Of a stretch of 64,000 nucleotides of DNA, positions 1,238 through 58,936 are shown one piece after another (position 1 is the first letter of the stretch; every line of letters starts with the position of its first letter). Origin of the DNA: an uncultured Thiotrichales bacterium. GTDB lineage: Bacteria > Pseudomonadota > Gammaproteobacteria > Francisellales > CACEW01. Under the pieces are notes generated by a model. It had not been told where the DNA came from and did not search any database. It saw nothing but the letters and a program-made list of their open reading frames with translations. Location: the NCBI GenBank assembly GCA_903870015.1, contig CAIQBE010000020.1, positions 3,143 through 67,142 on the forward strand. Reading direction: 5' to 3'. Made by a program: the position numbers and the translations under genes.

Positions 1238-1560
1238 AAAGGTTTTGCGGACTCCAAGACCTGATCGCGAATAAGTGGGTGGAGTGTTTTCTCAACGACA
1301 AGATCAACTTTTTGATGCAAGAGATCCTCTAAAGAAGATTTCAGCTGAATACGATCCAATAAGTTATGCTTCGTTGGCCAGGTAATCAAAAAATCAATAT
1401 CGCTTTTTGAGTGCGCAACCCCGCTCACGGTTGAGCCAAATACACGCGGATTCGTCACCCCATATTGCTTAAAAATATTCAGAATCTCTGCTTTATGATT
1501 CAGTAACTCTTGGTATTGCATAAGGCTCTTGAAAAGATTTCTATGTGTCCATTTTAGCAC
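1234..1560 (-). CDS. mntA: MntA-like minimal nucleotidyltransferase antitoxin
   Basis: 108 aa. GS-x-SG...SDIDFLI nucleotidyltransferase motif. Overlaps hepT. The start may instead be the internal Met (MQYQELL). Confidence 0.8.
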   Translation of the reverse strand: MLKWTHRNLFKSLMQYQELLNHKAEILNIFKQYGVTNPRVFGSTVSGVAHSKSDIDFLITWPTKHNLLDRIQLKSSLEDLLHQKVDLVVEKTLHPLIRDQVLESAKPL

Positions 1561-1653
1561 AAATAATAGAAAAAGACAGCCTCAAGCTGCTTGCGCAAAC
1601 ACCAATACTTGCGTAATATAACGGCCTATATGCAAATTCATACTGATTGATTC

Positions 1654-4188
1654 ATGAGCCCATCTTATATCGTCACTAAATTCGGCGGCAAAAGCGTTTC
1701 GGAATTGCGTTGCTGGCAGACCATTAATGCCATCACTAAGGCACATCTACAACAAGGCCTACGCCCCGTCATTATTTGCTCTGCGGTTAGTGGCATTACG
1801 GATTTATTAGAACAACTTTTAGTGGTAGCGCTAAAGCATCAACACACCCCTATTTTAACAAAAATCAGCGAACGCCATCAAAAATTAGCAGCGGATCTTG
1901 ATGTCAGCATGAATGAGGTGAATACAGATCTTGCTGAATTAAGCCTGCTGGCTAATAAAATCAGTGCGGATGCTACAGCTAGCCCACAAACACGCGCTGA
2001 AGTCCTAGCCTTTGGCGAACGCTTATCCACACGCTTAGGCGCTGCTTTTCTCAAAAAACACGGCATGAATATTGCCTGGCATGACAGTCGCCAATTATTA
2101 ATCTCGTGCCAAGATCCGCATGCCAATGAATCCAGCAGCTACTTATCGGCACGTTGTGACTGTGAGAAAGATAACGAATTATTACAAAAGTTAAATGCAG
2201 AAAAAGCAGCCATCATCATCACCCAAGGCTTTGTTGCTGCCAATATCCAAGGGGAAACCGTGATTTTAGGCCGTGGTGGCTCGGATACTTCTGGTGCGTA
2301 TTTTGCGGCAAAATTAAATGCCGTCAAATGCGAAATCTGGACCGATGTTCCTGGCATCTATACCGCCAACCCCCATCAAGTGCCCGAAGCGCAATTACTG
2401 CATTCGCTCGATTATGATGAAGCCCAAGAAATCGCCGCCATGGGCGCAAAAGTATTGCACCCGCGCGCGATTCTCCCCGTCAAATATCATCGCATCCCAC
2501 TTTACATTGCCAATACCTTTGACCCAAATCATCCTGGCACTTTGATCTCAAGCAACGGCTCACAATCAAGCGGTGAAATCAAAGCGATTCTAACTCGCAC
2601 GAGCCTCACCTTGATTTCGATCGAAACCCTCGACATGTGGCAACAAGTCGGCTTCTTGGCGGATGTCTTTGCGGCGTTTAAACGCCACGGCTTATCCATC
2701 GACTTGATTTCAACATCCGAGGCCAACGTCACCGTATCGCTTGATCTCAAAGCCAGCGCACAAGAGATGCATGTTGTCGATGCGCTCTTAACCGACTTAA
2801 ACACTTTTTGCAAAGCCAAAGCCATCGGCCCTTGTGCTTCAATTAGCTTAGTCGGACGCAATATTCGCGGTATTTTTCATAAATTAGGCGAAGCCTTTAC
2901 TGTCTTTGAAAAACACAATATCCATTTAATCTCACAAGCCGCAAATGACCTAAACCTCACTTTTGTTGTTGATGAAGATGAAGTCGAAAGCTTAGTCACA
3001 GAGCTACATCAATTATTATTCGCCGATATCAATCTCAAAAAACCCGTCAACATCAAAGAGCGCTGGTGGCATCCAAAGCAACAGGCATTGCTGAGTCTTG
3101 CCCAAAGCAAAACCCCGCTCTATGTCTATGATGCAGCGACTTTAGGCAACAACGTCAATAAATTAAAAAATCTAAAAGCGATTGATCAAGTATTTTTTGC
3201 CATGAAGGCCAATAATAACCAGGATATTTTGAAGCAATTTTATGCCGCAGGATTAGGCTTTGAATGCGTATCAATCCAAGAACTCGAGTTTATTTTTACG
3301 CTCTTTCCTGAGATTAGTCCACAAAAAATTATCTTCACGCCAAATTTTGCACCGCGCGCAGAATATAAGGCGGCGCTGAATTTTAACGTCAATGTCACGA
3401 TCGATAATCTCTACCCCATCGAACATTGGCCCGAATTATTTAAAGATAAAAAAATCATTGCCCGCATCGACCCAGGCCAAGGCTATGGCCATCATAAGCA
3501 TGTCTGCACGGCTGGCAGTATTTCTAAATTCGGCATCCCCATGAGCCAATTTGAACAACTGCTCACACTCACAAAGCAACATCATATCGAAGTCGTAGGG
3601 CTACATGCTCATACCGGCAGCGGGATTTTGACACCACAGATTTGGCAACAGACGGCACAATTTTTAATTGGGTTAAGCACTCACTTCCCAAAACTACGCC
3701 AAATCAATATCGGTGGCGGATTAGGTATTCCAGAAAAACCACATCAGCATGACTTAGATTTGGCAACGCTCGATGAACTGCTCTTAGAAGTCAAAACCCA
3801 AGCGCCACAACTCGAGTTCTGGCTTGAGCCCGGGCGCTTTTTAGTGGCACAAGCTGGCGTGCTTTTAAGCCGCGTTACCCAAATCAAAACCAAAGACGAT
3901 GTGCATTTTATTGGCGTCGACACTGGCATGAATTCACTCATTCGCCCTGCGCTATATGGCTCCTATCATTTTGTTGCCAACCTAAGCCATATTGATGCCC
4001 CCGGCACACAAACCGCCAATATCGTTGGCCCTATTTGCGAAAGTGGCGATACGCTTGCCTTCTCACGCCTGCTGCCAGAGACACAAGAAAATGATATCAT
4101 TCTGATTGATAATGCTGGCGCCTATGGACATGTGATGGGATCAGATTACAATATGCGCGCACCGGCAGAAGAAATTTATTTACATTAA
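1654..4188 (+). CDS. lysA: Bifunctional aspartokinase / diaminopimelate decarboxylase fusion
   Basis: 844 aa. N-terminal half has the aspartokinase motif (KFGGKS) and an ACT-like region. C-terminal half has LysA motifs (FFAMKANN PLP lysine, GGGLGIP, EPGRFLVA, CESGD). Confidence 0.88.
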   Translation: MSPSYIVTKFGGKSVSELRCWQTINAITKAHLQQGLRPVIICSAVSGITDLLEQLLVVALKHQHTPILTKISERHQKLAADLDVSMNEVNTDLAELSLLANKISADATASPQTRAEVLAFGERLSTRLGAAFLKKHGMNIAWHDSRQLLISCQDPHANESSSYLSARCDCEKDNELLQKLNAEKAAIIITQGFVAANIQGETVILGRGGSDTSGAYFAAKLNAVKCEIWTDVPGIYTANPHQVPEAQLLHSLDYDEAQEIAAMGAKVLHPRAILPVKYHRIPLYIANTFDPNHPGTLISSNGSQSSGEIKAILTRTSLTLISIETLDMWQQVGFLADVFAAFKRHGLSIDLISTSEANVTVSLDLKASAQEMHVVDALLTDLNTFCKAKAIGPCASISLVGRNIRGIFHKLGEAFTVFEKHNIHLISQAANDLNLTFVVDEDEVESLVTELHQLLFADINLKKPVNIKERWWHPKQQALLSLAQSKTPLYVYDAATLGNNVNKLKNLKAIDQVFFAMKANNNQDILKQFYAAGLGFECVSIQELEFIFTLFPEISPQKIIFTPNFAPRAEYKAALNFNVNVTIDNLYPIEHWPELFKDKKIIARIDPGQGYGHHKHVCTAGSISKFGIPMSQFEQLLTLTKQHHIEVVGLHAHTGSGILTPQIWQQTAQFLIGLSTHFPKLRQINIGGGLGIPEKPHQHDLDLATLDELLLEVKTQAPQLEFWLEPGRFLVAQAGVLLSRVTQIKTKDDVHFIGVDTGMNSLIRPALYGSYHFVANLSHIDAPGTQTANIVGPICESGDTLAFSRLLPETQENDIILIDNAGAYGHVMGSDYNMRAPAEEIYLH

Positions 4189-32550: not shown

Positions 32551-33837
32551 CTACAACCTCCACAGCGTAAAACCCGCCTGATTAAAATCTTCTTGATGTA
32601 AAATACTCTTCACATCCATTAAAACCTTAGCCTCTGCTTGCAGCATTTGCTTAAAATCATCCACAGTTAAACTTAAATACTCTCGATGAGCCACCGCTAA
32701 AATAAGTGCATCTAGATGATTAAATGCCTGTAAATCCAATAATGACAACCCATATTCATGCAAAGCCTCTGCTCTATCTGCATGGGGATCATGAACTAAC
32801 GGGGCAATGCCATATTCTTGTAACTCTGCAACAATATCTACGACTTTGGTATTACGCACATCAGAACAATTTTCTTTAAATGTTAAGCCCAAAATCCCAA
32901 CCTTAGCCTGTTGCAGACACACACCTTTTTTAGATAAAAGCTTTACAGTTTCTTGGGCAATATAAGCCCCCATACCATCATTAACACGACGCCCCGCTAA
33001 AATGACCTGAGAGTGATAGCCAACCTCTTCCGCCTTATGGGTAAGATAATAAGGATCAACCCCAATACAATGGCCACCGACAAGCCCAGGCCTAAAGGGC
33101 AGAAAATTCCACTTGGTTCCAGCCGCATCAAGTACTTCTTTGGTATCAATGCCTAACTTATGAAAAATCATCGCAAGTTCGTTCACAAAGGCAATATTTA
33201 AATCACGCTGGGTATTTTCAATCACTTTCGCAGCCTCAGCGACTTTAATGCTTGAGGCTTTATAGACACCTGCCTCAACCACACTGCCATAAACAGAAGC
33301 TACAATGCCTAAAATCTCGGGCGTTTGCCCTGAAACAATTTTACGAATTTTGGTAAAGGTATGTTCTTTATCGCCTGGATTAATACGCTCGGGCGAATAA
33401 CCAACGAAAAAATCAATGCCACACTTAAGGCCAGAATATTGCTCGAGCACCGGGACGCAATCCTCTTCCGTAGTGCCCGGATAAACCGTCGATTCATAAA
33501 CAACAATATCGCCTTTTTTAAGATGCGGTCCTAGCGTTCTTGATGCGGAGAGTAACGGGTTTAAATCTGGCTGATTAGCTTCATCGATTGGGGTAGGCAC
33601 TGCCACAATAAAAAAGTCTGCTTGTTTAAGATCTGCACCATCATTCGTAAACAGAAAAGAACCTTGCTTTAGTTCTACGGGAGAGACTTCACCAGTATGA
33701 TCTTCAGCATTTTTTAAGGCGGTAATTCTTGCATGATTGATATCAAAAGCAATCACTTTTTGCTTTTTTGAAAATGCAACAGCCACCGGTAAGCCAACAT
33801 AGCCTAGGCCTATTACACTAACTCTACGATCATGCAC
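32551..33837 (-). CDS. UDP-N-acetyl-hexosamine 6-dehydrogenase (WbpO/TviB-like)
   Basis: 428 aa. VIGLGYVGLP and catalytic Cys in GGHCIGVDP. Confidence 0.85.
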   Translation of the reverse strand: MHDRRVSVIGLGYVGLPVAVAFSKKQKVIAFDINHARITALKNAEDHTGEVSPVELKQGSFLFTNDGADLKQADFFIVAVPTPIDEANQPDLNPLLSASRTLGPHLKKGDIVVYESTVYPGTTEEDCVPVLEQYSGLKCGIDFFVGYSPERINPGDKEHTFTKIRKIVSGQTPEILGIVASVYGSVVEAGVYKASSIKVAEAAKVIENTQRDLNIAFVNELAMIFHKLGIDTKEVLDAAGTKWNFLPFRPGLVGGHCIGVDPYYLTHKAEEVGYHSQVILAGRRVNDGMGAYIAQETVKLLSKKGVCLQQAKVGILGLTFKENCSDVRNTKVVDIVAELQEYGIAPLVHDPHADRAEALHEYGLSLLDLQAFNHLDALILAVAHREYLSLTVDDFKQMLQAEAKVLMDVKSILHQEDFNQAGFTLWRL

Positions 33838-46321: not shown

Positions 46322-47815
46322 TTATTTAAACCCACGGGTGATTAAAAGCCTCATTATCTCACGCTCACCGGGAGTTAGCAAGATATACCAGAATAAGACA
46401 AAACTAAAAGCGCCAAAAACACCCCCTAATAAAATAATGGGCGGGATATGAGTTATATATAGAAATTTTTTGCTCATTTCTAGGAAAGAAAATAAAATGA
46501 TGCAGCATAAAATGATTGGAGCCGCATATTCAAAAACGAATTGTCTTAGCGTAATTTTTAAAAATTTTAAAGAAATCAAAACGACATACCAATTCGAAGT
46601 GAGCAATTGCCCCAAAAACACAGCCCATCCTGCGCCAACAACTCCATAACGTGGAAGAAGAAAAATTAAAAATAAAATATTTAAGGCTCCCCCTGCCCAA
46701 ACGGGAATTAAAGCAAACTTTATATAACCACAACTCATAACAACAGAAGCCAAGGTATCTTGCTGAATCTGTAATACAATCATGATAGATAAAAGTAGTA
46801 ACAAAAGATGGTTTAAATGATATTGCGGGCCCAACCAAATTGCAAAAATAAGATCTCCAAAGAAATTTAGGTAAAACAAAATGCAAACCAAAGCCAAAAC
46901 ATTAAATTTTAAAAAAATTAAAGTTGGTTGCTGTAATGCTTTGATACCTTGCTTCGCAAAAATGGAAGATATGAAGGGGAAAAGGCTCGATTGCCCTAGC
47001 ATGGCTAAAGTCATCAGTATCGTTATCGCTTGAAATGGCGGCATAAAAGATACAGCAGCTGTTGCAGTAAGATAATGCGCTACAATAGGCGCGTTAATTT
47101 GGAAGATAAAATAACCACCCAAATAAATCATAAATAATCGCCCCCCTTGGCCCAAGAGGTATTGTCTATGTTTCCTTATTTTAGTGTACGCATTGGTTTT
47201 AACTTGAGCTTTCCAAAAAGCAAGTAAAAAAAGGCTCGCACTTTGTACCAAGAAGGTGAGCGTAAAAATAAGTAAGGTTTTTACAAAACAGAGGGCTACA
47301 ATTAAAAATAAGAAACTCATTATTGTTGAAACGGATCGAAGATTTCGTTCCTGTTTTACATTTTTGCTACCATAAATAGAAGCAAGATATGGGTTCGCCA
47401 ATAATCGCAGTAAGGCAGACACTAGAAATATTAAAATGCTAATTTTTAGCTCGGGATGATCCAAAGGGGAGGTAATACCCATGAAATACCAAAAAACTAA
47501 CGGTGCACTAATCACAAAACACCCTACAGAGAGCCTACGATTTAAACTTTTTGCGGCAGAGAATAACATTTTTTTTCGTATTTCTTTACCCCCCCCCTCT
47601 GCCAGACTCGTCTCTCGGGATAACGTTTGACTAATTCCAAAATCACACAACCCAAGCATCCCATTAAATCCTATAAACAATAAAAACACCCCTGCAAATG
47701 ATGCATTAAGCTCGCGGACCACTAATCCTGAAATCAAAAATCCAAAAAGCATCGCCGTCAATAAATTGATATAATTGGCAAATATGCCCGATAAAGCTTT
47801 TTTTATGTCTGACAT
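46322..47815 (-). CDS. wzx: O-unit flippase (Wzx, MOP superfamily)
   Basis: 497 aa, about 12-14 TM segments. Position and topology are typical of Wzx. Confidence 0.75.
   Translation of the reverse strand: MSDIKKALSGIFANYINLLTAMLFGFLISGLVVRELNASFAGVFLLFIGFNGMLGLCDFGISQTLSRETSLAEGGGKEIRKKMLFSAAKSLNRRLSVGCFVISAPLVFWYFMGITSPLDHPELKISILIFLVSALLRLLANPYLASIYGSKNVKQERNLRSVSTIMSFLFLIVALCFVKTLLIFTLTFLVQSASLFLLAFWKAQVKTNAYTKIRKHRQYLLGQGGRLFMIYLGGYFIFQINAPIVAHYLTATAAVSFMPPFQAITILMTLAMLGQSSLFPFISSIFAKQGIKALQQPTLIFLKFNVLALVCILFYLNFFGDLIFAIWLGPQYHLNHLLLLLLSIMIVLQIQQDTLASVVMSCGYIKFALIPVWAGGALNILFLIFLLPRYGVVGAGWAVFLGQLLTSNWYVVLISLKFLKITLRQFVFEYAAPIILCCIILFSFLEMSKKFLYITHIPPIILLGGVFGAFSFVLFWYILLTPGEREIMRLLITRGFK
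47589..47597 (-). repeat. Poly-G9 (coding strand) homopolymer inside wzx
   Basis: Plus-strand C9 counted at 47589-47597, encoding GAG GGG GGG GGT. An A8 tract (plus-strand T8 at 47569-47576) follows 12 nt downstream. Confidence 0.9.
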
Positions 47816-48315
47816 AACAATGTTCTCAAAAGAGCCTCTTTAAAATTAACACGATTATATAATCCTAGAGACGTTTTTGCTAATTCAATACTGGGAACAT
47901 AACGGCTAATTTCTATGGGATCTGTGAGGGAGGATAGTGTAAGCGACAAATGAGGCTCAGCTATCTCAGCAACAAATTGAGCAACCTCCTGCAAAGTATA
48001 ATCTTCAGCAGAGCCAACATTATAGGGATTAACGGACTGCCCTGAGACTAAAATAGTCCACAACCAAATGACTAAATCAGAAGGATATTGATAACATAAG
48101 TGTTCAGACATACATTTTCCAAGACTATAGGCACCACGCACACCGTATAGATTGGGAGCTATCGACATGGATTCACTTAAATGCTTGACATCTAAAGGCT
48201 GCTCACCATAAACAGCTCCAGAACTTGTTAGCAATATTTTGGGTTGCATTTTTAATTGGCGACAAAAATCTAACAAGTGTCTCGTACCATTGATAATAGT
48301 ATCTAGCATTTCCAA
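47803..48315 (-). pseudogene. Truncated extended-SDR epimerase/reductase (no Rossmann N-terminus, internal deletion)
   Basis: Begins at the NGTRHLL region, about residue 85-90 of such enzymes. Keeps the YSLGK catalytic dyad but lacks GxxGxxG. About 50 residues are missing before NPYNVGS. Confidence 0.7.
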
Positions 48316-48740
48316 AGACGCATTTTCAATTCAGGAAAACTCACATCAGAAAAACCATCACCATAGGTAAAACAAAAATCATCTTGATCTAAATAAGATT
48401 TAACACGCTTTAACCACACTCCCGTCATCGTTTCATCGCCCGTACCTACAAAGGTAATTTTCCAGGGCTCAGCATATTTTTGATGCACTTCCATTTTGTT
48501 ATGCTGCATATCAAAAGCGACATCAGACATATGCAAAAAATAATTTGCAAAATACTCTTTAATGACATAGCCTTTATAGGCCAAGCAAATAAGAAAATCA
48601 TTAATGCCGTAGTGGGAATAAATTTTCATGATATGCCATAAAATAAGCCTGCCACCAATTTCTACCATGGGTTTGGGACGAAGGGAGGTCTCTTCAATGA
48701 TTCTTGTACCCAACCCTCCTGCTAAAATAACTGCTTTCAT
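48303..48740 (-). pseudogene. Truncated glucose-1-phosphate cytidylyltransferase (N-terminal 137 of about 256 residues)
   Basis: 21 differences over the first ~137 residues against the intact rfbF at 54959-55729 (hand count). It then diverges and runs into the SDR fragment. Confidence 0.8.
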
Positions 48741-48771: not shown

Positions 48772-49881
48772 TCAAAAAACGGGCTTTAGAACCCCCACCA
48801 CCAACTCCTGATCCCCAAGCGTCAAAAACCCACTCATAGGCAAACTAAGAATCTCCTTGGAAACCAGCGCCGAAACCGGAAAATCAGCATCCACATACCC
48901 AAGCCCTTTAAAACAAGGCTGCCCATGAATAGGCATCGGATAATGTACCGCCGTCGGAATCCCTGCAGCAGCCAATTTCTTCACCACAGCATCACGATCT
49001 TTAACCCGAATAGAATACTGCGCATAAACATGACTATGCCCGGGCAAAGTCACTGGCGTCACCACATCAAGATTTTTCAATAACTCACCATAACGCGCAC
49101 CCAATTCATCTCGACGTTTCAATTCATCATCAAAATACTTCAACTTCACATTCAATACCGCCGCCTGAATGGTATCAAGCCGGCTATTTAAACCCACATA
49201 ACTATGCTGATACCTCGCCGTTTGCCCATGCACACGCAAAGCTTTGATCTTTGCTGCCAATTCATCATCATTGGTAAACAGCGCCCCGCCATCACCATAA
49301 CAGCCCAAAGGCTTTGAGGGAAAAAAACTAGTGCACGCCATATCCGATAAATTACAGGATTTTTTGCCTTTATACACCGCGCCAAAACTCTGGGCAGCAT
49401 CCTCGATCACATAAATTTTATGGCCGAATTTTTGTGAATACTCCAAAGCAATCGCGTTAATGGCATCCATATCGGCAACCTGGCCATACAACGATACTGG
49501 CATAATCGCACGGGTTTTTGGAGTAATGGCTGCCGCAATTAACGCTGGATTGATGTTATAACTTTGCTCATCAATGTCTACTAAAACGGGCTTCGCACCA
49601 AAAATAGCTGAGGCCTCTGCCGTAGCAATAAAAGTGAATGAGGGCGTAATCACCTCATCCCCAGGCTTAATATCAATCGCCATCAACGCCAGCATTAAGG
49701 CATCAGTACCATTGGCACAACTAATTGCATGCTTAGCGCCTGTATATTCAGCCAAAGAAGCCTCAAGCACATCAACATCTTTGCCCAAGATAAAGGCGGT
49801 GCTGGCAAGTACTTTGCTGATGGCCGCATCGATTTCGCCTTGATAGGCCCGATATTGGGCCTCTAAATTTATAAAGTGCAT
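48772..49881 (-). CDS. DegT/WbpE/ArnB-family sugar aminotransferase
   Basis: 369 aa. DAAQSFGA motif and PLP lysine in TSFFPSKPLG. Confidence 0.88.
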   Translation of the reverse strand: MHFINLEAQYRAYQGEIDAAISKVLASTAFILGKDVDVLEASLAEYTGAKHAISCANGTDALMLALMAIDIKPGDEVITPSFTFIATAEASAIFGAKPVLVDIDEQSYNINPALIAAAITPKTRAIMPVSLYGQVADMDAINAIALEYSQKFGHKIYVIEDAAQSFGAVYKGKKSCNLSDMACTSFFPSKPLGCYGDGGALFTNDDELAAKIKALRVHGQTARYQHSYVGLNSRLDTIQAAVLNVKLKYFDDELKRRDELGARYGELLKNLDVVTPVTLPGHSHVYAQYSIRVKDRDAVVKKLAAAGIPTAVHYPMPIHGQPCFKGLGYVDADFPVSALVSKEILSLPMSGFLTLGDQELVVGVLKPVF

Positions 49882-49971: not shown

Positions 49972-50931
49972 TCACCCCCCATTTCCCTTGGGCAAATCCT
50001 TATCAAAGTTCAAGCGCTCTTCCTCAACAACCAAAGGCCGCTTCATCACCTGCGTATGAATCGCCATAATATACTCACCCAACAGACCGATAAAGAACAA
50101 TTGCACTGAAAAAAAGAAGAAAACACCAATAAGCACAGGCGCAATACCCAGGGCAAATTGCTTCCAAAAAATGAGCTTAAGAATCAAATAAATCACAGCA
50201 ATCAGCATAGACACGCCTGATAAGAAAAACCCACAAATGGTAGCAAGTCTTAAGGGCACTTTTGAATGGCTGGTAATGCCGAGCATCGCGATATCATAGA
50301 GCGTATAAAAGTTATTTTTGGTAATACCCCGCAAGCGCCTCGGCTGGTTAAAAGGAACTTCAGCGACTTTAAAACCGAGCTCGGAAACCAAGCCACGCAG
50401 ATAAGGATAGGGATCTTCAAGCGTTCTTAACATAGCAATGACTCGTTGGTCATAGAGGCCAAAACCCGTAAAATTATGGATCAGCTTGGCCTCAGAAATA
50501 CGCGCCACTAAAGAATAATAAAGCTTACGAATTTTAAACATGATCCGAGATTCTTGACTGACAGGCTTAATGGCCGCCACAACTTTAAAGCCCTCTTCCC
50601 ATTTTTTAATGAACTCGATAATCATTTCAGGAGGATCTTGTAAATCCGTTGCCATCAAAATAACCGCATCACCCTCTGCCTGCATCATGGCATAATATGG
50701 CGAGCGAATATGTCCAAAATTACGGGCATTGAGAATCACCTTCACCTGCGGGTTCTCATGAGCCAAAGCTTTTAGCAAAACTGCTGTCTGATCCTGGGAG
50801 CAATTATCAATAAAAACAAACTCAAAAGCATACGCTTTAAGCGTTTGAGTGATAGCCTGTAAACGCTCATAAAGGGGCTTGATATTGTCTTCTTCGTTGT
50901 AGCAAGGTAAAACAATACTAATTTTTTTCAT
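49972..50931 (-). CDS. Polyprenyl-phosphate glycosyltransferase (GT2, ArnC/GtrB/DPM1-like)
   Basis: ISIVLPCYNEEDNI and FIDNCSQDQT motifs, plus two C-terminal TM helices typical of this subfamily. Confidence 0.8.
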   Translation of the reverse strand: MKKISIVLPCYNEEDNIKPLYERLQAITQTLKAYAFEFVFIDNCSQDQTAVLLKALAHENPQVKVILNARNFGHIRSPYYAMMQAEGDAVILMATDLQDPPEMIIEFIKKWEEGFKVVAAIKPVSQESRIMFKIRKLYYSLVARISEAKLIHNFTGFGLYDQRVIAMLRTLEDPYPYLRGLVSELGFKVAEVPFNQPRRLRGITKNNFYTLYDIAMLGITSHSKVPLRLATICGFFLSGVSMLIAVIYLILKLIFWKQFALGIAPVLIGVFFFFSVQLFFIGLLGEYIMAIHTQVMKRPLVVEEERLNFDKDLPKGNGG

Positions 50932-50945
50932 ACTTTTTCCTTTAA

Positions 50946-52682
50946 TTACGTACCTTCCATCTCAAGCGGTTTAACAAATGGCTCCATATCCGTAATAGGT
51001 CGACCAAAGGCAATCTTAGGATAAACATGAAGACTAGGCTCAATCATCACTTGCAATAATGCCGGTTGCTTTGGATCAGCCCAAAGCCAATGCATAGCAT
51101 CATGAATTTCATTATCCTGACTAATCGTCTTGGCAGTAATCCCATAAGCTTGAGCTACCGCTTCAAAATTAGGCGCACTATAACCCCAATAAGTTGACTG
51201 GTATCGACTATCAAAATAACTATCTTGAAACTGGCGAATCATCCCCAAACTCTGATTATTTAATACGATAATTTTGATGGGTAGTTGATTGCGCACAATG
51301 GTCTGCAACTCTTGAATATTCATCTGTAAACAACCATCCCCGACAATAACCACCACTGGCTGCTTTTGACAAGCAAAAGAAAAGCCCATGGCTGCGGGCA
51401 AAGCATAACCCATGGCCCCCATACCTGCTGAAGTAACGAACAATTGACTCTTTAATATTTCCAAGGATTGTGCCGACCACATTTGATGACTACCAACATC
51501 AACGGAATAACCTACTGCTACCTGCGAAGACTGGGAAAGCGCGTGTATAAATACATTAGGGTTAATCCCCTGAACATCTTTAAGCTCGTTAAGGTCTGGC
51601 CACTGGGCTTTTAGCTTTAAAATATACGCAATCCAATCATCACAGGAAAATTTGCTTAACAAATTAGCTTTTGTTTTTGCGAAAAAAAGATCAAAAAACA
51701 CCTGCAAATCAGTGACCATGGGAATGCAGCCAGGAATTCGATTATTAATTTCACCGATATCACAATCCACATGAATAATCGTTTTGTTCGCCGCAAATGC
51801 TTGGGTATCAGCCCCAGTTTGTCGAATATCAAGACGACTGCCTAATACCAGCAGCAAATCACTTTCAGCAAAGGCGATATTTGCCCAACGATTACCATAA
51901 CTACCAATAAAACCAACACGTAAAGGATGATCATACGGCATGAGATCTAAGCCTAAAAGAGAAGTAACCACAGGCATTTGACACAACGCTACAAATTCCA
52001 AAAAAGAGGCCCTAGCCCTTGCTGCATTGACCCCTCCTCCTGCCAAAATCAAGGGCCGCTTTGCTGTTGCAATAGCGTTAACAAGCACATCAATATTTTC
52101 TAATTTTGTAGTATCAAGCCCCCGCTCCCTAAATAATTCAACAGGGGGCGGACACTCTATTTGCACACGTTGTATATTCATGGGAATATCAATTAATACA
52201 GGGCCAGGACGACCACTCACACTTATTTTATAGGCCTGTTCTAATAAGCTCGGCAGATCTTCAGCACGTTCAACCTGCACCGCCCACTTGGTAATAGGCA
52301 AGGCCATGCTGACAATATCTGTTTCTTGAAAGCCAAGTTGACGAATGGCTTTCATACCTTTTTGCTCGTGAGTATTCACCTGCCCTGTGATAAAAATAGC
52401 AGGACAAGAATCAAAATAACAACCAGCAATCCCTGTCAATAAATTGGTAGCGCCTGGGCCACTTGTTGCCAATGCAACGCCTGGCTTACCCGTAATTCGG
52501 CCAAAGGCATCTGCAGCAAAAGCCCCTGCTTGCTCATGATGCACGCTAATGATATTCACTTGTCCCCTTTTATGGAGGGAATCGAGAATATGCGTAATCA
52601 TACCGCCAGCAACTTCAAATACATGACTAATTTTTTGGGCACCAATAAATTCAGCAATATAGTCACTCGCCTTGTATTTCAT
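50946..52682 (-). CDS. Thiamine-diphosphate-dependent enzyme (acetolactate synthase large subunit / YerE-like)
   Basis: 578 aa. ThDP motif GDGCLQMNIQELQT...VLNN and N-terminal Pyr domain (catalytic-Glu region HHEQAGAFAADAF). Confidence 0.85.
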   Translation of the reverse strand: MKYKASDYIAEFIGAQKISHVFEVAGGMITHILDSLHKRGQVNIISVHHEQAGAFAADAFGRITGKPGVALATSGPGATNLLTGIAGCYFDSCPAIFITGQVNTHEQKGMKAIRQLGFQETDIVSMALPITKWAVQVERAEDLPSLLEQAYKISVSGRPGPVLIDIPMNIQRVQIECPPPVELFRERGLDTTKLENIDVLVNAIATAKRPLILAGGGVNAARARASFLEFVALCQMPVVTSLLGLDLMPYDHPLRVGFIGSYGNRWANIAFAESDLLLVLGSRLDIRQTGADTQAFAANKTIIHVDCDIGEINNRIPGCIPMVTDLQVFFDLFFAKTKANLLSKFSCDDWIAYILKLKAQWPDLNELKDVQGINPNVFIHALSQSSQVAVGYSVDVGSHQMWSAQSLEILKSQLFVTSAGMGAMGYALPAAMGFSFACQKQPVVVIVGDGCLQMNIQELQTIVRNQLPIKIIVLNNQSLGMIRQFQDSYFDSRYQSTYWGYSAPNFEAVAQAYGITAKTISQDNEIHDAMHWLWADPKQPALLQVMIEPSLHVYPKIAFGRPITDMEPFVKPLEMEGT

Positions 52683-52703
52683 GTCAGCCCCGAGCCTTGA
52701 TAA

Positions 52704-53903
52704 TTAAAATTGCTTTAAAAAAAGCGCCGTAGACTCATGCATATGCCCAACCATTTCATCGTTAAGCCCATGATGACACGCCTGCAAAATACCTCCGCGC
52801 ATGACATCATCAGTATGGACATAACCAGCATCACTTTGTCGGCGCGCAATCGTCTGAAAGCCCGGTTGACGCAAAATATTTCCAGTAAAAATAGTCCGAG
52901 TCTGAATATTGCGCTTTTCTAAAAATATTTGCATATCCGTTCGACTAAAGGGTGCATCAGAACGGACTGTTAAAGGAAAAGCCAACCAGCCAGTACGTGA
53001 GTTAGGCAACTGCTTAGGTAAAATAAAAAATTGCTCGTACTGCTTGTAAAAGTCTAAATGCTGCTGAAACCATTTTTCACGTAGATCAATATTCAAATCA
53101 AGCTTTTTCAACTGCACCGTACCAAAAGCTGCACCCATTTCACTAGGCTCAATGTTATAACCCAAGCGCTCAAAAATAAATTTGGCATCATAACGAATGC
53201 CTTCAACAAAAACATTAAAGCGATTTTCGATAGCTTCAGATTCAACAAATAATGATGAACTACGACCCCAACTGCGCAAAAGCTTGGCTTCTGTCATCTC
53301 TTTTTCTTGATTAAAGCAGACCATCCCACCATTACCACCACAATTAATCACATGCGAGCCATAAAAACTGGTGGTACTCATATCGGTAAAGCGCCCAGAA
53401 GATTTTCCATCAATTAAGGCCCCTAGAGTATCTGCCGAATCCTCTATAACGAGCAAGTTATATTTATCAGCCAAAGCCCGAAGTTTTTTCCAGTCCGGTA
53501 AATTACCTAAAAGATTGGGAATCATCATCGCCCTGGTTTGAGGCGTGATCATGGCTTCAACTTGATTGGCATCAATATTGTATGTGCCTGGCTCTACATC
53601 CACAAAAGCAGGGATCAAATCACTTTTAACGATCGGCGCTACGGTCGTTGAGAACGTTAACACCGGCGTAATCACTTCAGATTTTGGCGGAAGATTGGCA
53701 ATTTCAATGGCGAGATAATTGGCAGATGAACCCGAGTTCACCATCACACCATATTTTTTATCAAACTTCGCAGCAACGCCGGTTTCCATCTCAGTAACAT
53801 GTTTACCCATTTGCGTGCTGGTCCGTAACACATGAGTCACTGCCGCAATTTCCTCTTCACCATGGACAGTGCATCCATAGGGCACACGAATAAAATCAGT
53901 CAT
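52704..53903 (-). CDS. rfbH: Nucleotide-sugar 4-keto-6-deoxyhexose 3-dehydratase (RfbH/DdhC/ColD family)
   Basis: NSGSSANYLA motif, and His replaces the PLP lysine (TSFYGSHVI). ATGA overlap with the rfbG stop if the start is 53903. An alternative ATG lies at 53909. Confidence 0.82.
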   Translation of the reverse strand: MTDFIRVPYGCTVHGEEEIAAVTHVLRTSTQMGKHVTEMETGVAAKFDKKYGVMVNSGSSANYLAIEIANLPPKSEVITPVLTFSTTVAPIVKSDLIPAFVDVEPGTYNIDANQVEAMITPQTRAMMIPNLLGNLPDWKKLRALADKYNLLVIEDSADTLGALIDGKSSGRFTDMSTTSFYGSHVINCGGNGGMVCFNQEKEMTEAKLLRSWGRSSSLFVESEAIENRFNVFVEGIRYDAKFIFERLGYNIEPSEMGAAFGTVQLKKLDLNIDLREKWFQQHLDFYKQYEQFFILPKQLPNSRTGWLAFPLTVRSDAPFSRTDMQIFLEKRNIQTRTIFTGNILRQPGFQTIARRQSDAGYVHTDDVMRGGILQACHHGLNDEMVGHMHESTALFLKQF

Positions 53904-54955
53904 GAACATCTCCTTGAAAAAGTTTGAATTTGATTAACGGTAAACTGTAGCATATCCTGATTACCACGCAAAGCTTGATACCAGTCAACAATCATAGTTA
54001 AAGCTTCATTGATATTAAGCACAGGATGCCAATCTAAATGCGTTTCGGCTTTTTGGATATCAAGCTTTAAATAATGAGCTTCGTGCGGATGCTGGCCTGG
54101 ATCCTGCTGCCAAGCCCCTTGACCAAATCCTGAAATTAAAGCCTCAACAATTTGCGCCACTGTTTTGGCATCTTGGCTATAGGGCCCAAAATTCCAGGCT
54201 TCCGAAAATTCTTGGGGCTGATTCCATAATTTTTCAGCCAACACAAGATAACCATGCAATGATTCTAATACATGTTGCCAAGGACGTATGGCATTGGGAT
54301 AGCGGAGGTTGACGGTTTCATTTTTTTGAATCGCCCGAATAAAATCAGGAATTAAACGATCCACAGAAAAATCACCACCACCAATGACATTCCCTGCTCT
54401 TGCAGTTGCCACGCCTATTTTTTGCGTATCAAAAAAAGAATTACGGTAAGACGCCATCACCAACTCCGCACAGGCTTTACTGGCACTATAAGGATCATAG
54501 CCCCCCATAGGCTCATTTTCACGATAAGGCCACACCCATTCTTTATTTTCATAACATTTATCGGTGGTAATCACAACGATGCTTTTCAACGAGGGAATGT
54601 GACGCGCAGCTTCTAGCACATGCACCGTCCCCATGACATTACTCATGTAATTTTCAATGGGATTGTTATAAGATTCGCGCACCAAGGGCTGAGCTGCTAG
54701 ATGAAATAAAACCTCAGGCTCACTTGCCCGCATGGCTTTTAAAATGCTGTCGTACTGATTGATATTACCGATCTCACTATCGATCAAACGCTCAAGGCCC
54801 GCTAGCTTAAAAAGCGCGGGCTCTGTATTAGGCGCCAAAGCAAAGCCTTTGACTTTTGCACCCAAAGTGCTGAGCCATAAACTCATCCATGAGCCCTTAA
54901 AGCCCGTATGCCCGGTTAAAAAAACTTTTTTATCTTTCCAAAAAGTATGATTCAT
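53900..54955 (-). CDS. rfbG: CDP-glucose 4,6-dehydratase
   Basis: 351 aa. TGHTGFKGSW Rossmann motif and YSASKACAE catalytic dyad. Confidence 0.9.
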   Translation of the reverse strand: MNHTFWKDKKVFLTGHTGFKGSWMSLWLSTLGAKVKGFALAPNTEPALFKLAGLERLIDSEIGNINQYDSILKAMRASEPEVLFHLAAQPLVRESYNNPIENYMSNVMGTVHVLEAARHIPSLKSIVVITTDKCYENKEWVWPYRENEPMGGYDPYSASKACAELVMASYRNSFFDTQKIGVATARAGNVIGGGDFSVDRLIPDFIRAIQKNETVNLRYPNAIRPWQHVLESLHGYLVLAEKLWNQPQEFSEAWNFGPYSQDAKTVAQIVEALISGFGQGAWQQDPGQHPHEAHYLKLDIQKAETHLDWHPVLNINEALTMIVDWYQALRGNQDMLQFTVNQIQTFSRRCS

Positions 54956-54958
54956 CGA

Positions 54959-55729
54959 CTATTTCCAAACTTTCCAAGGCGCCTTGCCCGATTGCCATAG
55001 CTCTTCTAAAAGATGTTTTTCGCGCAAAGTATCCATGGGCTGCCAAAAGCCCTTATGAAAATAAGCACTCATTTGGCACTCAGTAGCAAGTCGGTGCATA
55101 GGCTCCTGCTCCCAAAGTGTGTGACCCCCATCAATATAATCAATCACTTTGGGAGACAATACAAAAAAGCCACCATTAATCCAAGCACCATCACCCCGTG
55201 GTTTTTCTTTAAAAGAAAGCACTTGATTCTCTGAAAACTCAATGGCACCAAAGCGACCCGGAGGCTGTGTTGCCGTAACAGTTGCCAAACGCCCCTCTTT
55301 TTTGTGAAGCGCTATCAGCTCATGAATATTGACATCAGAAAGGCCATCACCATAGGTAAAACAAAAATCCTCTTGATCTAAATAAGGCATAACCAGCTTT
55401 AGGCGACCCCCAGTCATAGTTTCATCGCCTGTATCTAACAAAGTCACTTTCCAGGGTTCAGCGTGTTTTTGATGCACTTCCATTTTATTATGCTGCATAT
55501 CAAAGGTCACATCAGACATATGCAAAAAATAATTAGCAAAATACTCTTTAATAACATAGCCTTTATAACCTAAACAGATAACGAAATCATTGATCCCATA
55601 ATGAGAGTAAATCTTCATGATATGCCACAAAATCGGCTTACCCCCAATTTCAACCATAGGCTTGGGGCGAAGTGATGTTTCCTCGCTAATACGCGTCCCT
55701 AAACCCCCTGCTAAAATAACTGCCTTCAT
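54959..55729 (-). CDS. rfbF: Glucose-1-phosphate cytidylyltransferase
   Basis: 256 aa. [38 protein letters not shown]. Confidence 0.92.
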
Positions 55730-56706
55730 ATTATCCCCAAATCTAATAAGACCAATCGCTTCAAATGTGCTTTAAAATCCATAGTGGCACTCCAGTGCAA
55801 TGCTTTAACAAGCTTCGTTGAATCAATCGCATACCGCCAATCATGCCCAGGGCGATCCGTCACAAAACGAATCAAAGAATGATAAGACTGCTCGCGCGGC
55901 TTTAACTCATCAAACAAATCACAAATCAATTTCACAATATCAATATTGGCCCATTCATTGTGACCACCGACATTATACACATCGCCGATCTTACCCTGAC
56001 GCAAAATCAAATCAATCGCAGCACAATGATCCTCAACATACAGCCAATCACGAATATTACTGCCATTGCCATACACAGGAATTGGATGCCATTCTAAACA
56101 AGAACGAATTACCGTCGGAATAAATTTTTCAGCATGCTGCAAAGGACCAAAATTATTAGAACAATTTGAAGTCGTCACCGCCAAACCATAAGTATGATGA
56201 TACGCCCGGACCAAATGATCTGACCCTGCTTTCGACGCCGAATAAGGCGAATTAGGCGCATACTGTGTTGCCTCAGTAAAAGGCAGATCATTCGGCCCCA
56301 GAGTGCCATAAACCTCATCGGTAGAAATATGATGAAAACGGCATTTTGCTTTGCGTGCCGCCTCTAACAAGCTATGCGTACCCAAAACATTAGTTCTCAC
56401 AAAAATCGCCGGATCTTTAATAGAATTATCCACATGCGATTCTGCAGCAAAATGTACTATCGTATCAATCTCATGCTCTTGCAAAAGCCTTTCAACCAAG
56501 GCTTGATCACAGATATCCCCCTGCACAAAAATATGACGGTCTGGATGCGGAAGACCCGCAAGATTATCCAGCGAACCCGCATAGGTTAAAAGATCTAAAT
56601 TGACAATCAAACTCTCAGGATAGTGCTTTTGCCAATAATGGATAAAGTTAGCGCCAATGAAGCCCGCCCCGCCAGTCACCAGCAGTTTTTTTAACTTAAA
56701 CTGCAT
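55726..56706 (-). CDS. rfbB: dTDP-glucose 4,6-dehydratase
   Basis: Start at [21 protein letters not shown], catalytic YSASKAGSD. The track ORF carries a 22-codon 5' extension. Confidence 0.92.
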
Positions 56707-57526
56707 ACATATCCTGTAATTCCTCTTGCCATGAGCACTGACAAATCCCAAAAATTTTGTTGATTCTATCACAACTCAACACCGAATTCGATGGCCGCTT
56801 CGCCTTCACCGGATACTCCGCCGTGGTAATCGGCACAAGAGTGCACTTTTCTGGATCAACAAAGCTTTTAGCAAAATCATACCAGGTCGTTTGCGGTGCA
56901 TCAGTATAATGATAAATACCCCAATGCGATGTTAACTGTGGATGCGCTAACAAAGCCAAAATCACTTTGGCAATATGGGATGCTCCAGTAGGTGAGCCGT
57001 GTTGATCCGCGACAATTTTCAGCTGATCACGCTCTTGTGACAGTCGCGTAATTGTTTTGACAAAGTTATTGCCAAAGCGCCCAAAGACCCAGCTGACCCT
57101 TAAAATAATATGTTTATCCCAAGTCGCTTGCAGCAATGCCTCTCCGGCAAGTTTAGAGCCGCCATACACACCCTGAGGATTAGGAGTGTCCGTTTCAAGA
57201 TAAGCAGCTTTTTTAGTGCCATCAAAAACATAATCCGTGGAGATGTGAATCATCGGGACATTATATTCTGCACAAGTTTTTGCAAGATTGGCAACACCCA
57301 TGGCATTCACAGCAAAAGCCTTTTCAGGCTCATCTTCCGCTTTATCCACCGCCGTATAGGCTGCACAATTGACCAGATAATCAACCCCCGAAAGATCTGC
57401 TAAATCAGACTGAGTAATATCTAACGCTTTTGATGAGTATGCTAGTACTTCATGACCCGCTGCTTTTGCTAGCAAAGTAAGCTCTTGCCCCAATTGCCCA
57501 TTAGCCCCTGTAATGAAAAGCTTCAT
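56696..57526 (-). CDS. rfbD: dTDP-4-dehydrorhamnose reductase
   Basis: 276 aa. MKLFITGANGQLG and YGGSK motifs. Confidence 0.9.
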   Translation of the reverse strand: MKLFITGANGQLGQELTLLAKAAGHEVLAYSSKALDITQSDLADLSGVDYLVNCAAYTAVDKAEDEPEKAFAVNAMGVANLAKTCAEYNVPMIHISTDYVFDGTKKAAYLETDTPNPQGVYGGSKLAGEALLQATWDKHIILRVSWVFGRFGNNFVKTITRLSQERDQLKIVADQHGSPTGASHIAKVILALLAHPQLTSHWGIYHYTDAPQTTWYDFAKSFVDPEKCTLVPITTAEYPVKAKRPSNSVLSCDRINKIFGICQCSWQEELQDMYAV

Positions 57527-58068
57527 GGCAAAGTAGCCTCTTTAAGCAAAGCAAATTTTTGATCTTTCGCTGAAAGTAATGGTGTAGCACCTATTGGGAT
57601 TGGCCAATCAATATTGAGGGCCGGATCATTCCAAATAATCCCTAACTCAAATTCAGGATGATAGTAATCGCTACATTTATAATGAAAATCCGCAGATTCA
57701 CTCATCACATAAAAACCATGAGCAAACCCTTTGGGGACAAACAATTGCCAATGATTTTCATCACTCAAAACCACACCATAACTTTTACCAAAAGTTGGCG
57801 AGTTTTGGCGAATATCCACAGCGACATCAAAAACCTGGCCACGAGAAACCGTCACCAATTTATCTTGAGGATGTTGCGTTTGAAAATGTAACCCACGTAA
57901 AACACCCTGCTGTGATCGGGACATATTATCCTGGACAAAATCACAAGTAACTCCCATCTTTCGATAGCGCTCGGCCTGATAACTCTCAAAAAAATAACCG
58001 CGGGCATCGCCAAAAACTTTAGGTTTAATGAGTAATAGCCCAGCCAAACCTGTTTCAACCACTTCCAT
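57523..58068 (-). CDS. rfbC: dTDP-4-dehydrorhamnose 3,5-epimerase
   Basis: 181 aa. GDARGYFFESY and RGLHFQ cupin motifs. Confidence 0.92.
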   Translation of the reverse strand: MEVVETGLAGLLLIKPKVFGDARGYFFESYQAERYRKMGVTCDFVQDNMSRSQQGVLRGLHFQTQHPQDKLVTVSRGQVFDVAVDIRQNSPTFGKSYGVVLSDENHWQLFVPKGFAHGFYVMSESADFHYKCSDYYHPEFELGIIWNDPALNIDWPIPIGATPLLSAKDQKFALLKEATLP

Positions 58069-58069
58069 T

Positions 58070-58936
58070 TTATTTTCCTAATAAACTTAATAAATATTTG
58101 CCATAACCACTTTTACATAAAGGTTTTGCTAATATTTCTAATTGCGCAGCATCGATAAAACTTTTGCTAAATGCCACTTCTTCAGGTGAACCAATATAAT
58201 GCCCCTGACGCTCTTGAATCACACGAATAAATTCCGAGGCCTCGAGCAAAGACTCATGCGTACCCGTATCAAGCCAGGCAAATCCACGCCCTAGCGTTTC
58301 GACCTGCAACTCACCACGATCCAAATAAATCTGATTCAAACATGAAATTTCAAGCTCACCACGTGCCGAAGGTTTAAGGGTCTTGGCATATTCCGAGGCC
58401 TTGCCATCATAAAAATACAAGCCCGTAACCGCATAATTAGATTTTGGCTGCTTAGGTTTTTCTTCAATATTTAAAGCCTTACCAGTAGCATCAAACTCCA
58501 CAACCCCATAACGCTCAGGGTCTTTGACATTATAAGCAAAGACCATACCACCCTTGGTTAACTCAGAAGCTTTTTTAAGGGTATCCGAAAAATGTTGGCC
58601 AAAAAAAAGATTATCGCCTAAAATCATCGCCACCGGTTTTTGATCAATAAATTTTTCACCAACAATAAAAGCATCAGCCAAACCACGGGGCTCATCTTGA
58701 ACTGCATAGGAAAGACGCATCCCCAATTGCGAACCATCACCCAATAAATTTTGAAAATGCGGCGTATCCCGAGGCGTTGAAATAATCAAAATCTCACGAA
58801 TGCCAGCCAGCATCAGTACTGACAAAGGATAATAAATCATTGGCTTATCATAAACTGGCAATAGTTGCTTACTAATCGCCAGCGTTGCCGGATGCAAACG
58901 CGTCCCTGAACCCCCTGCCAAAATAATGCCTTTCAT
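58070..58936 (-). CDS. rfbA: Glucose-1-phosphate thymidylyltransferase
   Basis: 288 aa. [18 protein letters not shown]...[17 protein letters not shown]. Confidence 0.95.

Follow-up and report, generated by a model that had tools for sequence, protein, structure and literature searches.

We analysed a stretch of 64,000 nucleotides (the window) from an uncultured Thiotrichales bacterium (class Gammaproteobacteria, GTDB order Francisellales; contig CAIQBE010000020.1 of assembly GCA_903870015.1, 1.79 Mb in 50 contigs with a completeness estimate of 100%) that carries genes for a predicted branched-chain deoxysugar linked to cytidine diphosphate (CDP). In the second half of the window (about 27-59 kb) every gene lies on the minus strand, forming a single long glycan locus. 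The order of transcription is rmlA, rmlC, rmlD, rmlB, rfbF, rfbG, a gene for a DegT-fold protein, a gene for a thiamine diphosphate (ThDP)-dependent enzyme, a family 2 glycosyltransferase (GT2) gene, an aminotransferase gene and two gene fragments, beyond which follow a Wzx-like flippase and then more transferases and sugar-tailoring genes. A preliminary description of this DNA, made without database searches, had reported a co-oriented run of rfbF, rfbG, a 3-dehydratase gene and a ThDP-enzyme gene; all four are found on the minus strand where it had placed them, and the GT2 gene completes the set considered here:

54959..55729, minus strand: rfbF, glucose-1-phosphate cytidylyltransferase (TIGR02623 equivalog, 471.3 bits against a cut-off of 300.25, full length)
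53900..54955, minus strand: rfbG, CDP-glucose 4,6-dehydratase (TIGR02622 equivalog, 496.1 bits against a cut-off of 278.45)
52704..53909, minus strand: P0001, predicted RfbH/E1-like CDP-4-keto-6-deoxyglucose 3-dehydratase of the pyridoxamine 5'-phosphate (PMP)-dependent type, 401 amino acids, DegT fold
50946..52682, minus strand: P0002, YerE-like ThDP-dependent carboligase, 578 amino acids, three thiamine pyrophosphate domains
49972..50931, minus strand: GtrB/ArnC/PgfS-type GT2, predicted polyprenyl-phosphate glycosyltransferase for the CDP-sugar (GT2 domain PF00535)

None of the five genes is truncated, and they deviate from their relatives at 0-1 of about 100 conserved columns. The junctions from rmlB to the GT2 gene range between a 10-nt overlap and a 21-nt gap, so that the run from rfbF to GT2 looks co-transcribed with rmlACDB upstream.

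A 3-dehydratase clade without iron-sulfur ligands

P0001 has the DegT fold (PF01041, 241 bits) and its best match in the PDB is the Yersinia E1 enzyme (3BCX, 210 bits), with 142 bits to ColD; on the RfbH model NF011936 it reaches 295.6 bits, under the cut-off of 423. The motif SFYGSHVI, in which the preliminary description had recognised a histidine in place of the lysine that binds pyridoxal 5'-phosphate (PLP), is present, and in the HMMER alignment to 3BCX its His186 matches E1 His220, which replaces the Schiff-base lysine. The cysteines C193, C251, C253 and C261 of E1 fit exactly the published spacing C-x57-C-x-C-x7-C, which the preliminary description had named for the [2Fe-2S] site of this enzyme type. 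At these four positions P0001 carries Ala, Ser, Leu and another non-Cys residue, and the segments around them, IEDSADTLG and WGRSSSLFVESEAIENRF, are free of cysteine, so the alignment revealed no ligands that had been overlooked. The protein holds exactly four cysteines in total (C13, C190, C198 and C378), in agreement with the earlier count, and its single departure from 130 columns conserved in the family is an F-to-Y change at position 288.

Used as a query, P0001 retrieved 76 loci, including 63 near-full-length relatives with 46-86% identity. SFYGSH is found in 63/63 of these relatives and cysteine at any of the four ligand positions, three of them in the loop, in 0/63; most have Ala at the position of C193, and the pattern shared by the 63 reads SFYGSH and WGR-SSSL..ESE. 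In Bacteroidota, Verrucomicrobiota, Actinomycetota and Peregrinibacteria, the dehydratases whose genes adjoin YerE-like genes mostly retain EDCCD (or EDNCD) and DCWC..TC. In a phylogenetic tree the dehydratases without iron-sulfur (Fe-S) ligands form a single clade sister to the E1 type (Shimodaira-Hasegawa-like approximate likelihood ratio test, SH-aLRT, 99; stem 0.84), the tree being small, with few E1 sequences and long outgroup branches. Judged by alignment and phylogeny, the Fe-S-free dehydratase is thus not peculiar to this genome but belongs to a large conserved clade. Its members carry the generic public name "DegT/DnrJ/EryC1/StrS aminotransferase" or the JGI label for E1. The characterised 3-dehydratases in a 2022 review of nucleotide-sugar dehydratases are only E1, ColD and SpnQ (PMC8987622), and neither this review nor our literature searches yielded a characterised member of the Fe-S-free CDP clade.

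A separate case was seen in Patescibacteria (L017:5830-7167), where an E1-type dehydratase keeps EDCCD but none of the three cysteines of the loop (EYWFKTGEDSRRDK), apparently a loss of the cluster independent of the P0001 clade. The same locus contains a class I/II aminotransferase gene between the dehydratase and ThDP genes.

Search for an E3 reductase

The preliminary description had noted that the window holds no gene for a DdhD/AscD-type E3 reductase, the partner of E1, and had proposed a search of the remaining genome. No such Fer2-FNR gene was found in the window or elsewhere in the 1.79-Mb assembly: the sole match to Pfam Fer2 in the whole genome is NuoG, and the sole match to NAD_binding_1 is a 271-amino-acid Fpr-like protein without a ferredoxin domain (contig C28). 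As positive controls and queries we used two Fer2-FNR proteins from related genomes, on both of which the E3 motif pattern was validated; they returned nothing further in this genome and nothing in the open reading frames (ORFs) of about 150 fetched loci. Likewise, no Fer2/FNR family recurred in a Pfam scan of the ORFs near Fe-S-free dehydratases that had no other assignment (92 ORFs, 280-400 amino acids).

The two control proteins, from genomes G005 (L177:763-1746) and G006 (L178:745-1791), measure 327 and 348 amino acids and each join a plant-type ferredoxin, at the N-terminus, to a Fre-like reductase, which is the architecture of E3.

A ThDP enzyme that groups with CDP-sugar loci

P0002 matches the three ThDP-enzyme domains PF02776, PF00205 and PF02775, and the catalytic Glu (E50) and the GDG...NN cofactor motif (G448-D449-G450, N476) are invariant in a 27-sequence alignment that includes it. 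Its best NCBIfam match is the acetolactate synthase model TIGR00118, on which it scores 494.6 bits, under the curated cut-off of 538.35. It is the sole acetolactate-synthase-like protein of the genome, in which the acetolactate synthase small subunit (TIGR00119, ilvH) has no match and ilvC has only a weak one (22 bits against a cut-off of 226). The best PDB match is 5AHK (451 bits), which we take to be PpYerE (Hampel et al. 2018) if we assign the code correctly, and the acetolactate synthases of plants, yeast and E. coli score 285-312 bits.

As proposed in the preliminary description, we placed P0002 in a phylogeny, a tree of 72 sequences computed by a quick method (LG+G4) and labelled by gene context (CDP-sugar genes, ilvH or neither) rather than by assays. 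P0002 and 24/24 enzymes with CDP-sugar neighbours fall into one clade of 38 sequences (SH-aLRT 100, stem 0.48), apart from genuine acetolactate synthases: E. coli IlvI and IlvB and 19/20 ilvH-linked enzymes make up a separate, starred clade, and the remaining ilvH-linked sequence is unresolved at the base of the tree, outside the sugar clade. The homologue matches listed were mostly true acetolactate synthases, so the grouping is one of contexts, with no experimentally characterised YerE in the tree and no Legionella, Yersinia, Pectobacterium or Pseudomonas ThDP loci among the matches listed. P0002 conforms to its relatives at all 92 columns with a conservation of at least 95%, and rfbF, rfbG and the 3-dehydratase gene lie directly upstream of it, an association with counterparts in 26 other loci. 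We consider it highly probable that P0002 is a sugar-branching ThDP enzyme.

Homologues more than 60% identical to P0002 are numerous in Legionella and Bacteroidota. One of them, KTD24151.1 of Legionella maceachernii, is 62% identical, and yersiniose A was reported from the lipopolysaccharide (LPS) of L. maceachernii and L. micdadei (Sonesson and Jantzen 1992, as cited in PMC7867332). The homologue supports the yersiniose A logic that had first been proposed for the locus. A 513-kb metagenome contig (L097) carries a ThDP gene 91% identical to KTD24151.1 and a dehydratase 73% identical to P0001, its gene content being rfbF, the Fe-S-free dehydratase, GT2, a short-chain dehydrogenase/reductase (SDR), GtrA and the ThDP enzyme. 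YerE itself adds a pyruvate-derived C2 unit to CDP-3,6-dideoxy-4-keto-D-glucose, after which YerF reduces the side chain (PMC9306805; PMC12247030), and its relative ErwE rejects pyruvate (PMC9306805). YerE-like clusters have been predicted in silico in numbers above 200 (PMC12247030).

Cassette variants in related loci

In most loci with enough upstream flank the Fe-S-free dehydratase gene follows rfbF-rfbG. Downstream of it, L097 and L118 have GtrA, GT2, SDR and a YerE-like gene whose product is 60-63% identical to P0002, and other loci combine the GtrA/GT2/SDR set with more distant ThDP enzymes (31-38% identity); GtrA lies inside the cassette in L097, L106, L112 and L118. More than 20 loci, drawn from several phyla, have a homologue of the GT2 (46-63% identical) as a neighbour of the dehydratase or ThDP gene. 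Read from gene order, this conserved cassette of the relatives, rfbF-rfbG-dehydratase-GtrA-GT2-SDR-ThDP, suggests delivery of the sugar through undecaprenyl phosphate.

Several loci depart from this arrangement. A split transketolase-like pair replaces the YerE-like gene between the dehydratase and SDR/GT2 genes in L105, L126, L138, L140, L147 and L151 (the Transket_pyr subunit was confirmed in L126), and would be another ThDP solution for branching. Genes for a BphJ/BphI-like acetaldehyde dehydrogenase and 4-hydroxy-2-oxovalerate aldolase are present in three loci (L092, L112 and L131); in L092, which holds the closest relative of the dehydratase (86%), the Bph-like genes (1547-3443) are followed by a distant ThDP enzyme, a gene logic like that of the erwiniose (C4-branched) pathway. 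An RmlC-like epimerase and a reductase lie downstream of the dehydratase in L094, L098, L099, L116 and genome G006, in an ascarylose-like arrangement. By these gene neighbourhoods, the Fe-S-free clade is predicted to serve several CDP-3,6-dideoxyhexose pathways.

In five marine loci whose dehydratases are 47-49% identical to P0001, rfbF is immediately preceded by an Oxidored_FMN (Old-Yellow-Enzyme) gene, whose product may act as an alternative reductase or in tailoring:

L129:3785-4840, Oxidored_FMN gene
L135:2650-3702, Oxidored_FMN gene
L140:325-1380, Oxidored_FMN gene
L144:1660-2712, Oxidored_FMN gene
L154:1764-2819, Oxidored_FMN gene

Within its own order the module stands isolated. The ThDP gene had no match at an E value of 1e-100 or better in the other 66 scored genomes of the order, and the sister species has neither a member of the Fe-S-free dehydratase clade nor an SDR of the type described below. 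The nearest relatives of both the dehydratase and the ThDP enzyme come from Legionella or from freshwater or marine metagenomes, and this combination makes lateral acquisition of the module the most likely origin.

Neighbouring genes, an SDR scar and candidate lipid-carrier genes

The remaining features around the cassette are:

55726..58936, minus strand: rmlA, rmlC, rmlD and rmlB, dTDP-L-rhamnose genes (Pfam NTP_transferase, dTDP_sugar_isom, RmlD_sub_bind and GDP_Man_Dehyd)
48772..49881, minus strand: WbpE-like UDP-sugar 3-aminotransferase, outside the CDP pathway (407 bits to Pseudomonas WbpE, 3NYU/3NU7)
48303..48740, minus strand: scar, second copy of rfbF reduced to its 5' half, residues 1-138 (TIGR02623 positions 1-137 of 255)
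47803..48315, minus strand: scar, extended-SDR gene of which the 3' part is left (match to Pfam Epimerase confined to positions 87-157)

The aminotransferase was considered as a tailoring enzyme for an acetyl branch and rejected, being WbpE-like and no neighbour in the conserved cassette; its probable place is in a UDP-2,3-diamino uronic acid pathway, together with the UDP-sugar dehydrogenase at 32551-33837, and not with the GT2. The second rfbF fragment is 85% identical to the intact rfbF in protein and 82% in DNA over residues 1-138 and then breaks off, abutting an SDR fragment that lacks the Rossmann N-terminus; this scar lies 1.2 kb downstream of the cassette. The SDR fragment, with about 30% identity to the SDRs encoded next to the ThDP gene in related loci, is possibly the remnant of a YerF-like reductase. 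As a YerF equivalent it was rejected, because the Rossmann N-terminus is missing.

The search for a YerF-like reductase in the rest of the genome, which the preliminary description had advised, led to an intact candidate on another contig. This SDR (C50:29966-30994) is 43-47% identical to the ThDP-adjacent SDRs of the relatives and is the sole intact homologue found. Its best homologues outside the genus are 59%, 52%, 51% and 49% identical, and their contigs (12036, 9174, 111853 and 4541) equal in size contigs with dehydratase or ThDP matches, which supports, indirectly, a linkage of the SDR to these genes in the relatives. The GtrA protein encoded nearby is 40-45% identical to the GtrA proteins inside the relatives' cassettes.

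Both genes belong to an island unlinked to the window (C50:28361-35001, L168), which comprises two GT87-like glycosyltransferase C-fold (GT-C) genes, GtrA, the intact SDR, a protein with 13 transmembrane segments that has no Pfam match, and a 247-amino-acid GT2. The island may constitute the periplasmic half of the branched-sugar system.

The GT2 of the window has two C-terminal hydrophobic segments (residues 225-264 and 266-291). It matches PgfS with 187 bits and ArnC with 134 bits, both partial and below the cut-offs, and is accordingly a relative rather than an equivalog of these enzymes. Some of the relatives' cassettes that bear the GT2 also hold a YfhO gene. In a locus from Sphingobacteriaceae an 813-amino-acid YfhO-family membrane protein (L012:11736-14177) flanks a YerE-like cassette with a canonical Fe-S E1, which is consistent with glycosylation from a lipid carrier.

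Discussion

We put at roughly 0.68 the probability that rfbF, rfbG and the dehydratase, ThDP-enzyme and GT2 genes serve the synthesis and lipid loading of a yersiniose-type C4-branched 3,6-dideoxyhexose. RfbF produces CDP-glucose and RfbG CDP-4-keto-6-deoxyglucose, both steps being well supported by the equivalog matches, and the PMP enzyme P0001 would then remove the 3-hydroxyl group, most likely in a ColD-like manner. The PMP-sugar adduct would be dehydrated and the enamine hydrolysed to give CDP-3,6-dideoxy-4-ketohexose, ammonia and PLP, and PMP would be regenerated by transamination, probably from L-glutamate. P0002 would decarboxylate a 2-keto acid and add the acyl anion to C4; pyruvate is the most likely donor because P0002 has no accompanying aldolase genes, and a C2 (yersiniose-type) branch is mildly favoured. 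As the candidate ketoreductase of the YerF type, the SDR on contig C50 would act on the side chain; the GtrB/ArnC-like GT2 would load the sugar onto undecaprenyl phosphate, to be flipped and joined to a glycan of the envelope by the GtrA and GT87-like GT-C proteins encoded on C50. Delivery from a lipid carrier is, in our judgement, the better-supported option by a modest degree.

The yersiniose A pathway of Yersinia pseudotuberculosis O:6 (DdhA, DdhB, DdhC/E1 with DdhD/E3, YerE and YerF) shares with this scheme the start from CDP-glucose, the 4,6-dehydration, the PMP- and His-dependent 3-deoxygenation, the ThDP-dependent branching at C4 and an SDR candidate. Here, however, the [2Fe-2S] ligands are absent, no E3 is encoded in the genome and the reductase is unlinked, and the presence of a GtrB/ArnC-type GT2 in the conserved cassette implies transfer through a lipid carrier. 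For Yersinia, a cytoplasmic glycosyltransferase that uses CDP-yersiniose directly is assumed. With the Gtr and Arn systems of periplasmic glycosylation (GtrA flippase, GtrB/ArnC-type GT2 and GT-C transferase) our organism has in common a GT2 with two C-terminal membrane segments and the presence of GtrA and GT87-like GT-C genes in the genome, as well as GtrA and GT2 in the cassettes of its relatives; the predicted donor, however, is a CDP-linked branched dideoxyhexose instead of uridine diphosphate (UDP)-glucose or UDP-Ara4FN, and the GT-C partner is unlinked and assigned by inference.

P0001 combines features of two characterised enzymes. Its nearest solved relative is E1 (AscC/DdhC/RfbH), with which it shares the predicted substrate, the position of the catalytic His and the upstream genes rfbF and rfbG, but it lacks all four cluster cysteines as well as an E3 partner. 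With ColD it shares the DegT fold, PMP dependence, His in place of Lys and the absence of both an Fe-S cluster and a reductase partner, although the substrate of ColD derives from GDP-mannose whereas P0001 is encoded behind CDP-glucose genes, both here and in the majority of related loci whose upstream flank is available, and is closer in score to E1. E1 and SpnQ reduce the PMP-glucoseen adduct by means of their own [2Fe-2S] cluster; in ColD the adduct is hydrolysed and glutamate serves to restore PMP (PMC8987622). Because P0001 has no [2Fe-2S] site and the genome encodes no E3, ColD-like chemistry would be the best explanation, one to which we give a slight preference on sequence grounds; that the dehydratase is cluster-free and independent of E3, as the preliminary description had suggested, we hold with good confidence.

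Several observations weigh against this interpretation. ColD-like chemistry is deduced from what the Fe-S-free clade lacks. Two cysteines are conserved across the clade, C190 (93%) and C378 (96%), though they are too few for a four-Cys site inside one subunit. Genomes G005 and G006 carry an Fe-S-free dehydratase and yet encode unlinked Fer2-FNR proteins. In other phyla, too, canonical E1 genes that accompany YerE-like genes have no E3 gene next to them, so that the absence of E3 from a cluster alone is weak evidence, and the missing Fe-S ligands weigh more than the missing neighbour. The reductase and GT-C functions ascribed to contig C50 derive from homology and from synteny in other organisms, the genes being unlinked here, and the example of ErwE, which rejects pyruvate, weakens any prediction of the donor keto acid and its length (C2 or longer) from sequence.

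One alternative accepts the independence from E3 and disputes the mechanism: the dehydratase could still be reductive and draw electrons from another donor, such as a flavin reductase of the Old-Yellow-Enzyme type, or an Fpr-like protein with an unknown mediator. The marine loci with an Oxidored_FMN gene ahead of rfbF agree with this, as do an unlinked Oxidored_FMN homologue in the organism's own genome (contig C6, 32% identity), the Fpr-like gene on C28 and the precedent of SpnQ, which shows that non-dedicated reductases can serve 3-dehydratases (PMC8987622). Yet electrons reach both E1 and SpnQ by way of a [2Fe-2S] cluster in the enzyme itself, a cluster that P0001 does not possess, the flavin-reductase gene is absent from the Legionella-type cassettes nearest to the window, and ColD, the only known cluster-free 3-dehydratase, needs no reductase (PMC8987622); we regard this alternative as unlikely and prefer a hydrolytic, ColD-like ending.

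It is less likely still that the module is incomplete or decaying, so that the pathway halts at a 4-C-acetyl sugar or yields nothing that is used. Such decay would account for the deletion scar joining truncated rfbF and SDR genes, for a gene order unlike that of the conserved cassette with GtrA and SDR unlinked to it, and for a laterally acquired module that neither the sister species nor any other scored genome of the order contains, but it fits poorly with five full-length genes that hardly deviate at conserved columns, rfbF and rfbG above their equivalog cut-offs, operon-like junctions and the intact SDR and GtrA homologues on C50. That P0002 is an acetolactate synthase, or a carboligase unrelated to sugars that is merely sited in an LPS locus, is very improbable. 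The TIGR00118 match would suit it, and relatives of P0002 are often annotated publicly as "acetolactate synthase", but the score stays below the cut-off, the genome lacks the regulatory subunit and ilvC, a branch with SH-aLRT of 100 parts P0002 from E. coli IlvI and IlvB and from all 20 ilvH-linked enzymes, and the synteny of the ThDP gene with CDP-sugar genes is conserved across phyla. We therefore retain the reading of the five genes as a branched-sugar module.

The YerE-like part of this module is already known in kind, and the novelty lies in the Fe-S-free, E3-independent clade of CDP 3-dehydratases. We give even odds to the broader proposition that a monophyletic clade of CDP-4-keto-6-deoxyglucose 3-dehydratases works without a [2Fe-2S] cluster and E3, in a ColD-like fashion, and feeds ThDP-branched sugars into a Gtr-like undecaprenyl-phosphate route in many bacteria. 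The deoxygenation of CDP-hexoses at C3 by E1 and E3 is textbook PMP and iron-sulfur radical enzymology. If the proposition is true, a CDP enzyme without cluster or reductase would mean that this step has been solved twice in nature, with the radical E1/E3 route as one natural way to CDP-3,6-dideoxyhexoses and the ColD-like route as the other. Such an enzyme would also offer a simple catalyst for the production of these sugars, for which an attempt at recombinant E1/E3 reconstitution has failed (PMC7851689). The cassette further supplies a genetic candidate for the yersiniose A that was reported from Legionella LPS in 1992, and suggests that branched sugars of this type are attached periplasmically from a lipid carrier.

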